DNA of 64,000 bases from Dehalococcoidia bacterium (GCA_965207225.1 CBDBLV010000003.1:295419-359418), one strand, 5' to 3'; positions 18,556 to 51,728 are shown, numbered from the stretch's first letter. Notes: a model not told the origin generated them from the letters alone. A program made the numbers and translations.

Positions 18556-19590
18556 GTGAAGATGCGCTTCGGGGTGGGGATGGGGGGCACCCTCACCACC
18601 AAGAACGTGGGAGAGCACGCCAAGGTCGTCGAGGACAGCGGCTTCTCCTACCTCACTCTGGTCGACTCCCCGCCTAGGTCCCGGGACGTCCACATCATGA
18701 TGGCCCTGGCGGCCATGGCCACAAAGAGGATCAGGATCGGGCAGGGAGTCGTGGACCCGGTGACCATACACCCCTCGGTCATCGCCAACATGACGGCCAG
18801 CATCAACGAGATGTCGGATGGCCGGGCTTTCATAGGCTTGGGAACGGGCAATCCCATCGTGAAGCACCGCAGGAAAGTAACCCACGCCGTCATGCGGGAG
18901 GCCGTTCACTTCATGCGCAAGTTCATGGCAGGGGAGGAGGCGGAGTTCCAGGGGGTGAAGATGAAGTCCTTCTGGATCGGAGAGCCCCTGCCCATCTACC
19001 TGTCGGCCCACGGGCCCAGGACCATGCAGCTGGCCGGCGAGATCGCCGACGGCCTGATCTCCCTCTGCGTGGACCCCGTGTACGTCGAATGGGAGATGAA
19101 GCAGCTGCGCAAGGGCGCCGAACGGGCGGGGCGGGACGTATCGAAGATCGACACCTGGGCCCGCACCATGCTCTACGTCGCCGATTCTAAGGAAGCCGCG
19201 CGCCGGGAGACCTCCGCCTACCCCTCAAGCTACGCCGACCTCTGCGACATGCTGGAGAGGGACGACGATGACGTGGCCGAGCTGAGGGAGGCCCTCGAAG
19301 CCAACGAGCCGGGCTCTGTGCAGGCGCTGATCAACGACTCCCGGGCCTTTGCCAACGCCCTTGACCCGGACGTGGCCGAGAGGGTGGATGCGCCCCACTC
19401 CAGGGCAGTTACCCAACGGCTGATCGACTTCTACCACATCTCGGGCCCACCCTCCGAGATGTGCGAAAAGATAGAGAGGCTGGGAGAGCTCGGCATCAAG
19501 ACCATGTCCATGACCGCCTACACCCTCATCGACAAGATGGGAATGTTTCGCAAGGTCGGGGAGCACATCATTCCCCGCTTCTCCCAGTAA
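18556..19590 (+). CDS. LLM class (luciferase-like) flavin/F420-dependent oxidoreductase
   Basis: AMATKRIRIG, GRAFIGLGTG and PIYLSAHGPRTMQLAGEIADG. Confidence 0.88.
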   Translation: MKMRFGVGMGGTLTTKNVGEHAKVVEDSGFSYLTLVDSPPRSRDVHIMMALAAMATKRIRIGQGVVDPVTIHPSVIANMTASINEMSDGRAFIGLGTGNPIVKHRRKVTHAVMREAVHFMRKFMAGEEAEFQGVKMKSFWIGEPLPIYLSAHGPRTMQLAGEIADGLISLCVDPVYVEWEMKQLRKGAERAGRDVSKIDTWARTMLYVADSKEAARRETSAYPSSYADLCDMLERDDDDVAELREALEANEPGSVQALINDSRAFANALDPDVAERVDAPHSRAVTQRLIDFYHISGPPSEMCEKIERLGELGIKTMSMTAYTLIDKMGMFRKVGEHIIPRFSQ

Positions 19591-19684: not shown

Positions 19685-19824
19685 CAGTATTGAACTAGAG
19701 GCATACGCATGTGCGTTGCACATGCGTATGCCTCTGTTCTTCTTCCCCCTCTCCCTTAAAGGCCCTAAGAGCCTGCCCCGAGTCCCTCGAGGGGGAGAGG
19801 GGGATCAAGGGGGTGAGGGTTCCC
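19685..19824 (+). repeat. Composite palindromic repeat, copy 1 (variable 18-bp hairpin + boxC-like module)
   Basis: CAGTATTGAACT, then AGAGGCATACGCATGTGC-GTT-GCACATGCGTATGCCTCT, then CCCCCTCTCCCTT..GGGAGAGGGGGATCAAGGGGGTGAGGGTTCCC. Homologous to 20849-20966 and 50902-51018. Confidence 0.85.
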
Positions 19825-19867
19825 CCGTGGAGCCGAGGGGCATTCCATCCCCAAGAAGATCGGACAT

Positions 19868-19896
19868 TTGCACTATATGAACCCCCGTGCTATATT
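19868..19896 (+). promoter_or_regulatory. Sigma70-type promoter
   Basis: TTGCAC-17nt-TATATT. Confidence 0.55.
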
Positions 19897-20153
19897 ACGC
19901 CCCAGGCCGCCGACCTCACACCTCGGCGCCCATCACAATGCAGGATCAAAGGAGTCCCATGAGCCGCATAAGCCTACACAGGCCCCGTCTCAGCCGAACG
20001 GTATCCCACCGCCCGGCCCCCGGCACGCGCCTCCTCCCAGGCTCCTTTCTCTTTCCACCCGACGTCCTGCACCCCAACACCCACTACAAGCGCTGCCCAA
20101 AGGACCAACGCCTTGGCCTTCGCAGCGATCAATCACCGCCCCGCCCCCCGCAA

Positions 20154-20724
20154 GGAAGGTCCCCGGACAAATTACGGCACGCCCTATACAAGGGCCATTG
20201 CCAGGTGCGCGCCCCGCTCATAGGGCGCAACGGTTTCGTCCCGACAGACGACGCTAAGGAGCACGGTGTAATGCTGCTCCACCGGGCCATAGCGCCCTTC
20301 TTGGATTCCACCGTCGTCACCATCGGAAAACTCCGGTCTACGAACGGCGGTCACGGGTCCTCGCTCCCATCCCTCAGGGTGGTAAAGCACTTCCGGTGGT
20401 CGAGACTGCCCCAGAGCGAGAGTTTCTCGTGTCTCGTCCGCGTCCCCTCGGAAGTATGGGGCTGTGATTCCACCGTCGTCACCACCGGCATGTTCCGGTC
20501 TATGAACGGCGGTCACGGGTCCATGCTCTCACCCCTTGGGGTGCTAGAGCGCTTCCGGTGGACGAGGCTGCCCCAGAGCGAGATTTTCTCGCGTCTCGTC
20601 CATACCCTATCGGAAGTGTGGGGCTGTCGCAGGGTCGACGCTGGTGTGGACTGTCCCCAGGGGCGGACACCCCGCATCGGTACAGGCGTCGCCGACATCC
20701 TGCGCAAACCGTCCGGGACCTTCC
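20154..20724 (+). ncRNA. Candidate large structured non-coding element, locus A
   Basis: Closed by GGAAGGTCCCCGGAC / GTCCGGGACCTTCC. Many internal stems with G-U pairs on the + strand. Shares motifs with 50290-50597(-). Confidence 0.5.
20304..20627 (+). repeat. Tandem duplication, 2 x 162 bp
   Basis: Units start GATTCCACCGTCGTCACCA at 20304 and 20466 and both end TGGGGCTGT. They are colinear with scattered substitutions. Confidence 0.92.
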
Positions 20725-20848
20725 ACCACCTCCCTTCCTTGTCCGCCATTCCCTCTCTTACGACCGTCAATCCTGCGGAGGCAGGAACCCATCCCTTCGA
20801 AACAACCACCCCCAGCTGTGCAACTCACCCCATCCCCTCTCTTTTCTC

Positions 20849-20966
20849 CAGTACTGAACTAGAGGCAGGGGTTGGCGCTAAAGCGCCAACCCCTGCCTCT
20901 GTTTTTCTCTCCCCCTCTCCCTTGAAGGCCCTAAGGGAGAGGGGGATCAAGGGGGTGAGGGTTCCC
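20849..20966 (+). repeat. Composite palindromic repeat, copy 2
   Basis: CAGTACTGAACT, then AGAGGCAGGGGTTGGCGCT-AA-AGCGCCAACCCCTGCCTCT, then the same boxC-like module. Confidence 0.85.
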
Positions 20967-21068
20967 CTGTGGGGCTGGGGGTATTCCCTCTCCGTAAGGG
21001 CGACCAGCTGGTCGCCCTCCCCTTGCTACCTGCGCCACGCGAAATCCCCAGAAATCCCTTCAGGCGTC

Positions 21069-21121
21069 GTTCAATCAAACCAGCTACGAGTTCAATCAAT
21101 GTTCAATCAACGTTTAATCAA
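21069..21121 (+). repeat. Four phased GTT(C/T)AATCAA direct repeats
   Basis: Copies at 21069, 21090, 21101 and 21112. Confidence 0.8.
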
Positions 21122-21180
21122 AAACCCGCAACTGAATAAGAGGCCCGACCCATTGCCAACCCGCCGGACCAGCCGCCAAC

Positions 21181-21209
21181 TTGACAGCCTCAACCCTCGC
21201 CACTATCCT
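21181..21209 (+). promoter_or_regulatory. Sigma70-type promoter of the solute-binding protein gene
   Basis: TTGACA-17nt-TATCCT; AGGAGG Shine-Dalgarno before ATG 21340. Confidence 0.6.
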
Positions 21210-21339
21210 AGCTCCACCCTAGCGGGTCTTGCGGCGGTCGCCCCGCCGTTGAGGTGGAGAGCCCCGTCGCAGGTATCCCGTTTACCCCAGTCCCAATCGG
21301 CGTTCATCAGAGTCCATCAAGAAAACAGGAGGACCTTGT

Positions 21340-22764
21340 ATGAAGCTAGGAAGATATAGCTATAGGAGAGCCGGCCGCGGCAGGCTGATGATAGCCGCGC
21401 TGGGGCTGGCCTTGATTGTCCTGATGGTCATGGCAGCCTGTGGCGAAGCTGCTACGGCCACGCCCGAGCCCGCGCCTCCGGAGCCCGAGCCCACCGCCAT
21501 GCCGGAGCCCACCGCCATGCCGGATGAGCCGGACGAGCCGGATGCACCGGCGCCCACGGCCATGCCGGACGAGCCGGACGCACCGGCCCCCACGGCTGCA
21601 CCGCAACCCACGGCGACCCCCGAACCGCCCGCAGGGCCCCGGGCCATGTCCGAATGGACCGTCGACAACCCGGCCACCCGGGAAGAGATCGAGAACGAGC
21701 TTCAGAGATTCCGGGGCCAGAGCCTGGTATTCGCCACATGGGGCGGCGCCTACGAGGCAGCCCAGGCGAACGCCTACATGGCCCCCTTCCAGGAGCAGTT
21801 CGGTGTCGAAATAGTCACCGACACCATGAACTACGCCAAGGTCAGGGCCCAGGTCGAAACGGGCAACCTGCAGTGGCACGTCCTGGACTACGGCGGACAG
21901 GCCGCCTGGCAGGCCGCCACCGACGGATTCCTGGAAGAGTTGGACTTCAGCATCATTGACAACCGGGACTTCCTGGAAGCCGGCAGGTCGCCATACTTCG
22001 GTGGTGGTGGCATAACCTGGTCCAACGTGGTTGCCTACAGCCTGGAGGCCGTAGATGAGCTCTGGGGCGGCACACACCCGACCACCATGGCCGACGTGTT
22101 CGACTGGGATAACTTCCCCGGCGAGCGCTCGCTGGCCTCTCCGGAATGGAGTTGGAAGACCAGCCTCCGGTTCGCCCTCCTTGCCGATGAGCCGGAACTC
22201 CTGGAGACTGCCGAAGGCCGGGCCTCCCTCACGATCCTTTCCGACGAGCAGATAGACAGGGCGTACGAGTTGCTGGACGACATCGGTCCCAGGATCAAGT
22301 TCTGGTGGAGTTCGGGAGTGGACTGCCCCTCGGGCCTGATTGCCCGGGAGATCGACTTCTGCACGGCCTGGAACGGCAGGATCTTCGACGCCGAAGTCAA
22401 AGAGGGTGAGCCTATCACCATCTGTTGGACCTGCGGCCACATGATCAACACCGACTCCTGGGGCGCCCCCAGGGGCCTGAAGGACCAGGACGCCAACCTC
22501 TTCGAGCTGGCGCAGCTGTTCATGGCCTGGACCTCCTTCCCGGAGATCAACGCCGAGCTGTCCAAGTACATCAGCTACGGCCCCATGAATCTGGCGGCAG
22601 TGCCCATCCTGGACGGCCCGGATTTCGATGAGGTCCGGGACCACCTCCCCACCTCGTCCTCCAACGTCCCCTACGCCATCATCGAGGACGAGAACCACGA
22701 TGGTCAGATAGGCGACGTTATGGGTGAACGCTGGGTCGCCTGGCAGCAGTCGCTGACCAACTAG
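21340..22764 (+). CDS. ABC transporter extracellular solute-binding lipoprotein (PotD/PotF-like)
   Basis: Signal peptide with lipobox MAAC, a Pro/Thr/Ala-rich repeated linker (PTAMPDEPDAPA), and the motifs LVFATWGGAY, KVRAQVETGN..W and AWNGR. Confidence 0.88.
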   Translation: MKLGRYSYRRAGRGRLMIAALGLALIVLMVMAACGEAATATPEPAPPEPEPTAMPEPTAMPDEPDEPDAPAPTAMPDEPDAPAPTAAPQPTATPEPPAGPRAMSEWTVDNPATREEIENELQRFRGQSLVFATWGGAYEAAQANAYMAPFQEQFGVEIVTDTMNYAKVRAQVETGNLQWHVLDYGGQAAWQAATDGFLEELDFSIIDNRDFLEAGRSPYFGGGGITWSNVVAYSLEAVDELWGGTHPTTMADVFDWDNFPGERSLASPEWSWKTSLRFALLADEPELLETAEGRASLTILSDEQIDRAYELLDDIGPRIKFWWSSGVDCPSGLIAREIDFCTAWNGRIFDAEVKEGEPITICWTCGHMINTDSWGAPRGLKDQDANLFELAQLFMAWTSFPEINAELSKYISYGPMNLAAVPILDGPDFDEVRDHLPTSSSNVPYAIIEDENHDGQIGDVMGERWVAWQQSLTN

Positions 22765-32385: not shown

Positions 32386-32462
32386 TGGTCGGGGCGCCGG
32401 GATTTGAACCCGGGACCTCATCGTCCCGAACGATGCGCGCTACCGGACTGCGCCACGCCCCG
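32386..32462 (-). tRNA. tRNA-Pro(CGG)
   Basis: CGGGGCGTGGCGCAGTCCGGTAGCGCG-CATCG-TTCGGGA-CGATG-AGGTCCCGGGTTCAAATCCCGGCGCCCCGACCA; cloverleaf with encoded CCA. Confidence 0.96.
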
Positions 32463-50168: not shown

Positions 50169-50198
50169 ATTCTAGGCATCGGCGAGGGGGATTGTCAA
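50169..50198 (-). promoter_or_regulatory. Sigma70-type promoter of the amidohydrolase gene
   Basis: Minus strand TTGACA-18nt-TAGAAT. Confidence 0.6.
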
Positions 50199-50289
50199 TG
50201 TGCTACCCACTTTCAGCGGGTTGGTGTACACCGGGTTTCTATTCTGTTGTGGGATTTCTGTTTTCAGTTTGTCCGTCTTGGAGGGGGTC

Positions 50290-50597
50290 GGCGATGGAAG
50301 GTCCGGGACTCAGTTTCAGGGGGCGGGAGGCCTGCCTGGTTCAGCCCCGTGTTCCTGTGTCACATGGCAGACAAGCGAGGGGTTCTCGCCTGAGGGCGTC
50401 TCTGCCACCAGTTTTTCAGTTTTCCCGACCCACTCGGAGGGGTGGGTGGGTGTTTTCTCGCTGCCGTCGCTGGGTTAACGGGTATCTCCGAAGGGAACGA
50501 CGGGGGAGATTTTTCCAAGGGCCATAAGGCCCGAGGTTTTTCGGCAGGGCTCCTATATGAGGGGCGTGCCGTTTAATGTTGTGGACCTTCCATCGCC
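50290..50597 (-). ncRNA. Candidate large structured non-coding element, locus B
   Basis: Perfect 15-bp terminal inverted repeat GGCGATGGAAGGTCC / GGACCTTCCATCGCC. A series of hairpins separated by A-rich linkers on the - strand. Motifs shared with 20154-20724. Confidence 0.5.
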
Positions 50598-50826
50598 TGG
50601 ATGGATGGGGAAGGGTCACGGGACCCGATGGGATGAGGAGATGGCGACGTTCGCTTGTGCCGCAACCTGCCTGTCTCGTAAGGGGGGCGATTGGCCGGTC
50701 GCCTCCTACGGGAAGGGAGAGGTCTTGGGATGGGCTTAGGCGTTGAGTCCTCGGTGTCGGGTCTCGGGGGATTCCCTGGGTTTTTGGATCCTCCTTAAGG
50801 TTGGTGTCGGGTCTAGACTTAGAACA

Positions 50827-50855
50827 AATATAAAGCTCAAATGTTTACATGTCAA
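50827..50855 (-). promoter_or_regulatory. Sigma70-type promoter
   Basis: Minus strand TTGACA-17nt-TATATT, with a TCACAA-TT-TTGTGA palindrome (50865-50878) just upstream. Confidence 0.65.
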
Positions 50856-50901
50856 GGGGCAATGTCACAATTTTGTGAGAATATCCCCCTGGCCCCTCCA
50901 A

Positions 50902-51018
50902 GGGAACCCTCACCCCCTTGGTCCCCCTCTCCCTTAGGGCCTATAAGGGAGAGGGGGAAAGATGAATAGAGGCCCACGTGCGTGCAGGGCACGCACGTGG
51001 GCCTCTAATTCAGTACTG
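50902..51018 (-). repeat. Composite palindromic repeat, copy 3
   Basis: Reverse complement reads CAGTACTGAATT, then AGAGGCCCACGTGCGTGC-CCT-GCACGCACGTGGGCCTCT, then the boxC-like module. Confidence 0.85.
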
Positions 51019-51651: not shown

Positions 51652-51728
51652 GGCCCCGTGGTGTAGCGGACTAACATGCCACCCTGTCACGGTGGAGATC
51701 GCCGGTTCGAATCCGGTCGGGGTCGCCA
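51652..51728 (+). tRNA. tRNA-Asp(GTC)
   Basis: GGCCCCGTGGTGTAGCGGACTAACATG-CCACC-CTGTCAC-GGTGG-AGATCGCCGGTTCGAATCCGGTCGGGGTCGCCA. Confidence 0.96.

Follow-up and report, generated by a model that had tools for sequence, protein, structure and literature searches.

Two loci in a 64,000-nucleotide stretch of a Dehalococcoidia bacterium genome (GCA_965207225.1, CBDBLV010000003.1:295419-359418; the window, below) belong to one family of strongly folded intergenic repeats. By sequence comparison, the family derives from codons ~193-375, the RNase-H-like nuclease domain, of a terminase large subunit (terL)-like gene in a head-packaging cluster resembling those of phages or gene transfer agents (GTAs). 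Locus A (20154-20724, + strand) and locus B (50290-50597, - strand) represent two subfamilies of this family, which is restricted to a single genus. The copies no longer code for protein, and a compact fold has been retained on their sense strand. The most economical account, and on balance a probable one, is a terminase-derived, promoter-coupled, strongly folded repeat family of one sponge-associated genus that serves at the RNA level as a leader or a processed RNA. It is neither a free-standing new class of RNA gene nor a classic mobile element. An earlier reading of the window from sequence alone (the sequence-only reading) had proposed a structured non-coding RNA or a mobile element. Its picture of a multi-copy, folded and polymorphic element holds; its two labels fit less well, since the family is terL-derived and the inverted repeat is not a transposon end.

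Architecture of the two loci

The core of locus A, read directly, opens with GGAAGGTCC at 20154 and closes with GGACCTTCC at 20724, the full closing stem being GGAAGGTCC(CCGGAC)...(GTCCGG)GACCTTCC. In locus B the same 9-mers, GGAAGGTCC and GGACCTTCC, occupy minus-strand positions 50591-50583 and 50304-50296; the range 50290-50597 takes in six further paired bases per side, which extends the ends to GGCGATGGAAGGTCC...GGACCTTCCATCGCC and the closing helix to 15 bp. The ACGGCACGCCC hairpin stands 11 nt inside the end in A and 10 nt inside in B. A CCGTCGT stem, the motif GGTGG..GAGAC..CTCG..GTCT and GGGGCTG occur in identical order in both loci, and a profile of B matches locus A with an E-value of 7.7e-12.

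Each locus is preceded by a sigma-70-type promoter. That of locus A is TG-extended (TTTGCA-18-TATATT, 19867-19896, +, 9/12 matches) and lies 258 nt upstream of the element; that of locus B (TTGACA-17-TATATT, 50827-50855, -, 11/12 matches) lies 230 nt upstream. A scan for promoter sites near A and B found 2 and 3 sites vs 0.2 and 0.3 expected from shuffles. The leader of locus B (50598-50826, -) is built of repeated sub-modules. Copy comparison shows that its final ~50 nt (ATCTCCTCA..CGGGTCCCGTG..CCCTTCCC) is conserved across subfamilies, as is the C/A-rich, G-poor tail after the core (50240-50289, -), which ends ..CACAACAGAATAG. The sequence-only reading had described the ends, the ordered motifs, the hairpin 10-11 nt inside at both loci and promoters ~230-260 nt upstream, and all of these were confirmed.

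Descent from a terminase large subunit gene

Two unpaired matches to the element ends looked coding, and their translation proved colinear and in frame with a 462-residue open reading frame (ORF). This ORF is represented in the genome by two intact paralogs (C1:233687-235075 and C5:241269-242663). It matches the PHROGs terminase large subunit over residues 332-435 (E 1.5e-4 and 7.8e-4), and its homologs in a large protein collection, labelled Dehalococcoidia, carry the label PF17289, which we take to be the terminase RNase-H-like domain. A portal-like gene directly follows the C5 copy. Pfam gave no match for the intact terL-like protein, and neither Pfam nor PHROGs gave one for the fragment translation or for a 490-codon frame over locus A.

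The terL-like protein is found in 32 of the 41 genomes of the class, usually once per genome. The genomes of the genus (G000-G008) hold one to five full-length copies each, ~75-86% identical to the query. Fragments spanning residues ~193-375 or 261-368 are many per genome and occur solely in the genus. One fragment type is 93% identical to the full-length paralog lineage of another species and has sharp borders at residues 193 and 375.

The elements match terL as translated sequence and as DNA. In blastx, seven element clusters match it, with E-values from 1e-22 (A) to 1.5e-5; the homologous stretch of locus A covers 20064-20740 (+; blastx E 1e-19), the left edge being approximate. A DNA profile built from 20 intact terL segments matches locus A with E-values of 3.8e-43 and 1.1e-39 and all 14 B copies with E-values of 8e-8 to 5e-3 (7.8e-5 for the copy in the window), and the B profile in turn matches intact terL (E 4.4e-8). 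Identity of the elements to terL is 51-69% within the genus and 37-48% in other genera, and different subfamilies are closest to different terL paralogs. A group I or II intron or an intein inside terL was considered and rejected, because the segment is colinear, in frame and of equal length in the orthologs of other genera. The sequence-only reading had named homology to decayed coding sequence among the outcomes that would speak against it, and the homologs do trace to the terL nuclease domain.

Loss of coding

Substitutions among the A copies fall 94/122/92 at codon positions 1/2/3, and one copy is frameshifted. The lack of codon-position bias indicates that these copies no longer code, in agreement with the earlier statement that no credible protein is encoded. 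B has stops in every frame. The youngest pair of fragments still shows 5/8/16 substitutions by codon position. The 490-codon open frame (19887-21359, +) crosses the promoter leader, the locus A element, and terminator and repeat modules. It was rejected as a gene because it passes through these modules and the copies lack codon-position bias, and is taken as an artefact of a C-rich, T-poor strand.

The fold in the elements and in intact terL genes

The predicted fold of B has an energy of -135 kcal/mol vs -95.9 +/- 5.5 for shuffled sequences, giving a z-score (z) of -7.1 for the sense strand and -4.3 for the complement. The fold of A has a z of -6.6. In an alignment of 40 B sequences from 7 genomes, comprising 67 pairs, 99.1% of the pair cells hold standard pairs vs 34.6-45.6% in slid controls. 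Seven of the 67 pairs changed on both sides, a number reached in 0/500 shuffles, but 35 pairs are invariant and the copies are close kin. Several B pairs are G-U on the sense strand in most copies (fixed or frequent). The G-U pairs and the asymmetry in z together indicate one strand, the promoter strand that the sequence-only reading had singled out. Across the family the closing long-range helix measures 9-20 bp.

Each half of the closing helix corresponds to terL codons, one to those for DDGRFL and the other to those for G(T/P)SIV. In the intact terL genes of the genus these codons pair over ~20 bp, at -20 to -31 kcal/mol and with a compensated variant; no comparable pairing of them was evident in the terL genes of other genera. 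In 7 paralogs of the genus, the 410-nt coding segment between these halves has a z of -3.8 to -8.5. The same genes give -0.2 to -1.8 for a control segment, and the range for the homologous segment of 5 other genera is -1.8 to +1.8. Over 20 intact paralogs, 94.9% of the cells are paired and the covariation score is 0.142 vs 0.106 (0/500 shuffles). One hairpin, in a linker where the protein is variable, alternates between CG, GC and AU. Thus, the fold is kept and is common to the intact parents of this genus only, which makes decay alone an insufficient explanation.

Family size, range and subfamilies

The genome of the window (4.03 Mb, 5 contigs, 92% complete) carries GGAAGGTCC 49 times and its complement 50 times, where ~15 are expected per strand, and 21 pairs lie 60-2500 nt apart. 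Type B is present in 14 full copies with 90-97% identity. Type A is present in 5 copies with one or two 162-nt units each; in locus A itself two units (54 ancestral codons each) form a tandem duplication at 20304-20627 (+). When conserved 5' and 3' end matches were paired, 35 elements emerged, 364-709 nt long and falling into 10 sequence clusters; unpaired end matches added 12, for a total of 47 copies in the genome, and the claim of a multi-copy family is borne out. The DNA profile of intact terL segments finds at least 41 homologous non-coding loci. The elements are spread over all 5 contigs.

A search with the B unit found matches in every one of the 8 other genomes of the genus, 19-28 stretches each, and none in the 3 other genera of the family or in the 29 other families of the class. 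The DNA was also found in sponge, coral and marine metagenome runs.

Similarity between copies passes the inverted repeat, by 45-400 nt upstream and 5-75 nt downstream, and the ~50 nt before it and the C/A-rich ~50-nt tail after it are conserved across subfamilies. Farther upstream are promoter, hairpin and terminator modules, which themselves recur >100 times. In nine further loci the family flanks, together with a closing helix that shows compensation (GGAAAGACG/CGTCTTCC and variants), enclose unrelated cores. The GGAAAGACG-closed cores have no blastx match to the ORFs of this genome and no Rfam match.

Subfamilies closed by GGCGATGGAAAGACG/CGTCTTCCATCGCC have cores of 400-540 nt with 2-3 internal ~85-nt units (..GCGAGCTTGCGC.ATATCAAG..GGGG..). 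They are found at G000 C2:324251-324814, C5:1357434-1357997, C5:783447-784067 and C1:91071-91611, and in G008 at the locus A site (L067:325-1501). These cores show no similarity to terL, to the ORFs of this genome or to Rfam.

A search of the whole window against Rfam 15 at the gathering score returned 2 tRNAs only. When loci A and B were searched at E-values up to 10, weak hairpin-type matches appeared in the flanking repeat modules and none above noise in either core; a third subfamily gave 0 matches at E-values up to 0.01. No family of Rfam 15 (tmRNA, RNase P, 6S, SRP, riboswitches, group I/II introns, pRNA, HEARO/omega RNA, ROOL, GOLLD, OLE and the rest) thus matches at or near its gathering score, in line with the sequence-only reading, which recognized no known RNA. 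In titles and abstract openings, nothing relevant surfaced on intergenic repeats of sponge Dehalococcoidia or on terminase-derived structured RNA.

Promoters, neighboring genes and transcripts

Throughout the family, copies are preceded by a portable, consensus-like sigma-70 promoter and face the next gene. Among the B copies, a promoter of the form TTGACA-17-TAT(A/C)(T/A)T precedes each of the 14 by 126-232 nt, with 11/12 matches in 12 of them. In 7 of the 14, no other promoter-like site precedes the start codon. A strong terminator lies 3' of locus A (terminator-like hairpin at 20860-20901, +, from a scan and reading, followed by a second CCCTCTCCC module at ~20905-20990), whereas a terminator module follows 0/14 B copies.

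The downstream gene is co-oriented with the element in 42 of 46 cases. In co-directional spacers 22 elements run with the genes and 3 against; 20 elements are in divergent spacers and 1 in a convergent one. The background of 1568 spacers comprises 947 co-directional, 362 divergent and 259 convergent. All 24 downstream ORFs that were checked by Pfam are real genes with unrelated functions. The downstream genes include rpoB, nusA, recA, gyrB, leuS, a class I Glu/Gln-tRNA synthetase, def, a katG-like peroxidase, a moaA-like gene, FBPase and several amidohydrolases.

In one metatranscriptome run, contigs tile positions 20302-20583, at a depth bin of 74, and the gene downstream, at 7-19; their cover of locus A is confined to the stretch of the tandem duplication. 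The leader of locus A and the first and last 100-150 nt of its core are without metatranscriptome cover, which is not counted as absence. The contigs also lack the flanking modules, which are 20-100x more abundant in DNA; this argues against carry-over of DNA. An RNase III gene is present in the genome.

Dynamics at orthologous sites

The locus A cassette (1.58 kb) is absent in 4 of 5 congeners, as a whole in three of them, since the flanking genes there are 17-25 nt apart. In the closest relative the site is occupied by 1176 nt in which both the leader and the subfamily differ; judged by eye, it shares the outermost left module and the tail by the native -35 box. This box belongs to the promoter (21181-21209, +) of the downstream solute-binding-protein gene (21340-22764), and the insert ends just upstream of it. 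Of 5 congeners, 3 lack the locus B cassette; in these, the tRNA gene and the native promoter are separated by 12-146 nt instead of ~1.4 kb. Homology to the insert-free congeners resumes 3-12 nt upstream of the -35 box of that promoter (50169-50198, -), which serves the downstream amidohydrolase gene (50063-48942). Relatives that lack the cassette, as the sequence-only reading had suggested looking for, thus exist at both loci. A third locus, examined for a clean empty site of a single unit, has an orthologous copy in the closest genome and another subfamily at the site in another congener; synteny is broken in the rest.

No mobilizing enzyme was found with the elements. Wherever two ends lie within 3 kb of each other, they enclose 364-709 nt. 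There is no transposase between element ends in this genome, in which transposase families other than Y1 were not searched systematically. The Y1/RAYT family (PF01797) has 0 matches in the 92%-complete genome, with control genomes positive; REP/REPIN sequences mobilized by RAYT, a Y1 HUH transposase, were rejected for want of that gene. The sequence-only reading had proposed looking for a reverse transcriptase (RT), TnpB, recombinase or Y1 gene beside the copies, and none adjoins the copies examined. One IS481-type gene lies downstream of one copy. A diversity-generating retroelement or retron was considered and set aside: the 4 RT matches in the genome are far from any element and resemble two pairs of long RT genes. 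These RVT_1 genes have frames of 586-652 codons (G000 C2:158087-158773, C5:1548409-1549095, C5:1671488-1672288 and C5:1553608-1554405); two of the four score identically, and they are possibly group II introns.

All B copies have identical bases beside the inverted repeat (..CAGGCGAT / ATCGCCGACC..); these bases pair across the two sides and are therefore part of the element rather than a target duplication. No target-site duplication was found at the inverted repeat, and the junctions of the whole cassettes are blurred by native spacers that differ between species. Furthermore, the halves of the inverted repeat are former terL codons that are already complementary in the intact genes, which shows that they are not a transposon end. 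Miniature inverted-repeat transposable elements (MITEs) were examined on three further points. Presence/absence polymorphism is seen at loci A and B. An inverted repeat is present, but the similarity between copies extends beyond it on both sides, so it does not mark true ends. An autonomous relative was not found, as the end pairs enclose 364-709 nt and the genome has no Y1 match.

A proposed mechanism and its alternatives

Transcription from its own promoter would make locus A a stand-alone RNA of ~1 kb ended by the terminator. At locus B and the other B copies, the element's promoter would place a long structured 5' leader on the downstream gene. The closing helix and the internal hairpins would work in the RNA, and a module for processing or stability is the most plausible role; for instance, RNase III could cut the long helix and release a stable core. 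The lack of a transposase between the ends and of Y1, the location of the RT genes elsewhere and the dynamic loci point to recombination between the conserved flanks, by which copies would spread and swap cores without a dedicated transposase.

Several points weigh against this account. The covariation is modest: 35 of the 67 B pairs never vary among copies that are recent relatives, and most of the double changes in B are confined to one hairpin region. In the intact genes, the count of double-change pairs is reached by 41 of 500 shuffles. Synonymous variability in the folded terL segment is not reduced but higher, 0.30 vs 0.23, which means that there is no overlapping constraint at the sequence level; the higher value would fit exchange with diverged non-coding copies. 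Conversely, conservation in the non-coding copies could be due in part to gene conversion from the intact genes. The RNA evidence consists of short contigs from one run and from a related organism, at 88-93% identity, in which strand, level and ends are unreadable. The orientation counts rest on crude ORF scoring, with 24 downstream ORFs verified. The RNase III step is a guess from the length of the helix alone. Finally, no target duplication or clean single-unit insertion is defined.

A purely selfish repeat is a serious rival, if an unlikely one. The family would then be non-autonomous MITE-like or recombination-driven DNA, whose ends and hairpins serve mobilization of DNA or single-stranded DNA, or nothing. 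Transcription would be a side effect of travelling promoter modules, and the orientation bias would reflect purifying selection against promoters firing into converging genes. Dozens of copies with 90-97% identity, presence/absence and replacement at orthologous sites, and a mosaic of sub-modules with variable outer boundaries agree with this account. So do the crowding of the genome with other repeat modules and the ends that co-vary between subfamilies (GGAAGGTCC/GGACCTTCC vs GGAAAGACG/CGTCTTCC), as would ends bound by one protein. However, no copy exceeds ~710 nt, no transposase lies between such ends in the genome, the Y1/RAYT gene was not found, and what flanks the inverted repeat is conserved sequence, not a duplicated target. 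The G-U pairs and the z asymmetry favor one strand, the same fold exists within intact coding genes that look immobile, and copies precede rpoB, nusA, recA and gyrB.

A more far-reaching version of the RNA-level role, which we regard as speculative and rather improbable, is that an RNA module was born inside a domesticated terL and was copied from more than one paralog to the promoters of ~50 host genes, bringing them under shared RNA-level control.

Neutral debris, that is, decaying fragments of terL pseudogenes with a structure inherited by chance from coding sequence, is disfavored and very improbable. Clear descent from terL, the loss of coding constraint and the closing complementarity already present in the intact genes are all as expected of debris. 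It would leave without explanation 41 fragments that share common boundaries, each behind a promoter and directed at a gene, and z values down to -7 vs about -1 in control segments of terL. Nor would it account for the ~80% of variant stem cells that keep pairing (our own sum over the pair table), the 15-bp helix in B and the compensated variants in other subfamilies.

Equally doubtful are packaging signals, in which the terL fold would be a pac-like site and the scattered copies would let a phage- or GTA-like machine start packaging host DNA. An origin within a terminase gene that adjoins a portal-like gene, the presence of terL in 32 of the 41 genomes of the class, as for a domesticated system, and copies dispersed across all 5 contigs suit this idea, but strand-specific G-U pairs and compensation in hairpins are unexpected in a duplex DNA site. 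Orientation tracks the downstream gene, with no obvious chromosome-wide direction. Known pac sites, moreover, are located in or near small-terminase genes.

An invertible switch, in which flipping of the core gates promoter read-through into the downstream gene or toggles terL, is suggested by inverted repeats of 9-20 bp flanking a 300-570 bp segment between promoter and gene, and also inside a gene, but is extremely improbable: the core is inverted relative to the flanks in 0/47 copies of the genome, and no inversion joint was seen at the locus A ends in 3 DNA runs, whose contigs can miss rare forms.

Comparison with known systems

ERIC/IRU sequences, the Correia elements of Neisseria and pneumococcal BOX are transcribed palindromic intergenic repeats of ~100-160 nt. 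Some palindromic repeats carry promoters and are cut by RNase III, affecting neighboring mRNAs, as in the case of Correia. The present elements likewise occur as many dispersed intergenic copies with ends able to pair as a long helix when transcribed, and they share with BOX a modular build and a variable number of internal units. They differ from all three in several ways: i) they are 300-650 nt long; ii) they come demonstrably from a protein-coding gene that still bears the fold; iii) they are nearly always oriented as the downstream gene; and iv) they show no target duplication, and their cores are swapped between conserved flanks.

With MITEs the elements have in common short non-coding copies, inverted ends, high copy number and insertion polymorphism among relatives. 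They differ from MITEs in that neither an autonomous partner sharing their ends nor a target-site duplication was found, in that their inverted repeat is internal and made of former codons, and in that conservation continues ~50 nt outside it on both sides. Pseudogenes that yield non-coding RNAs resemble them in coding ancestry, lost codon-position bias and frameshifts; here, in contrast, one defined sub-gene segment has been amplified to >40 copies, each coupled to a promoter, with a fold that is retained and common to the functional parent.

The pRNA of phage phi29 (RF00044) is likewise a structured RNA, one associated with the DNA-packaging ATPase system of a phage. It is the product of a single-copy phage gene of ~170 nt, outside the ATPase coding sequence and not dispersed in the host, unlike the present elements, which have no Rfam match at any threshold used. 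Cis-regulatory 5' leaders such as riboswitches, T-boxes and protein-binding leaders share the position between promoter and gene, the sense orientation and the conserved helices. The genes downstream of the present elements, however, have no common function, identity between copies is far above that of ancient leaders, and no ligand or partner is indicated.

Other repeat modules in and around the window

The regions bordering both loci are rich in repeats of other kinds. Upstream of locus A, a terminator-like hairpin of a high-copy terminator module (19696-19736, +; 19 pairs, T-rich tail) ends the upstream gene (18556-19590) and recurs many times genome-wide. It is followed by the high-copy CCCCTCTCCCTT...AAGGGAGAGGGG hairpin repeat module (19740-19860, +), which has >100 BLAST matches in the genome and at which metagenome DNA depth peaks. 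Upstream of the locus B unit, by scan and reading, a terminator-like hairpin module (50967-51007, -) is likewise followed by a CCCTCTCCC module (~50880-50960). The same two-part module, a terminator hairpin (..ACTGAACTAGAGGC-stem-GCCTCTGTTCTTCT) and then a CCCCTCTCCCTT..AAGGGAGAGGGG hairpin, is seen at 19696-19860, 20850-20990 and 50880-51007. Its flanks are conserved, and the sequence of the terminator stem varies between copies yet remains paired. There are well over 100 copies genome-wide, and metagenome contig depth peaks at 570-2350.

A short tandem repeat, GTTCAATCAAC x 2.9, occupies 21090-21121 between the second repeat module and the locus A tail, and its motif recurs downstream of other element copies. 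Another short palindromic repeat, GTCATTCC(G/C)A..CCCGCGAGGAATC / GTCATTCCCGACCCCGATCGGGAATCC, is found in many intergenic regions and flanks several elements, e.g., in G000 C3 near 346200 and in G008 L067. The two tRNA genes of the window lie at 32389-32462 (-) and 51652-51725 (+); the second adjoins the locus B region missing from congeners.

Implications

The family offers a large structured non-coding family with a traceable origin, of which one genus displays every stage: the intact gene, a young copy that is truncated and has 93% identity to a full-length paralog, non-coding subfamilies of greater age, and others that are highly diverged. In the parent gene, the fold within coding sequence is confined to the lineage that bears the copies, which points either to dual selection on protein and nucleic acid structure or to gene conversion from the copies into the gene. 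If the elements are selfish repeats only, they would still be an unusual class, without a recognizable mobilizing enzyme. The elements will also confound annotation, as illustrated by locus A, which lies within a spurious 490-codon frame.

For the uncultured sponge symbiont, the cassettes put consensus-like promoters and leaders of 300-700 nt before core genes, probably with an effect on expression. If an RNA module did arise inside terL, the terL sequence would read both as protein and as structured RNA, and a common nuclease or a protein of the terminase system that recognizes the closing helix could link rpoB, nusA, recA and gyrB with a packaging gene. The family would then exemplify a regulon that arose through the dispersal of an RNA domain of phage-gene origin.

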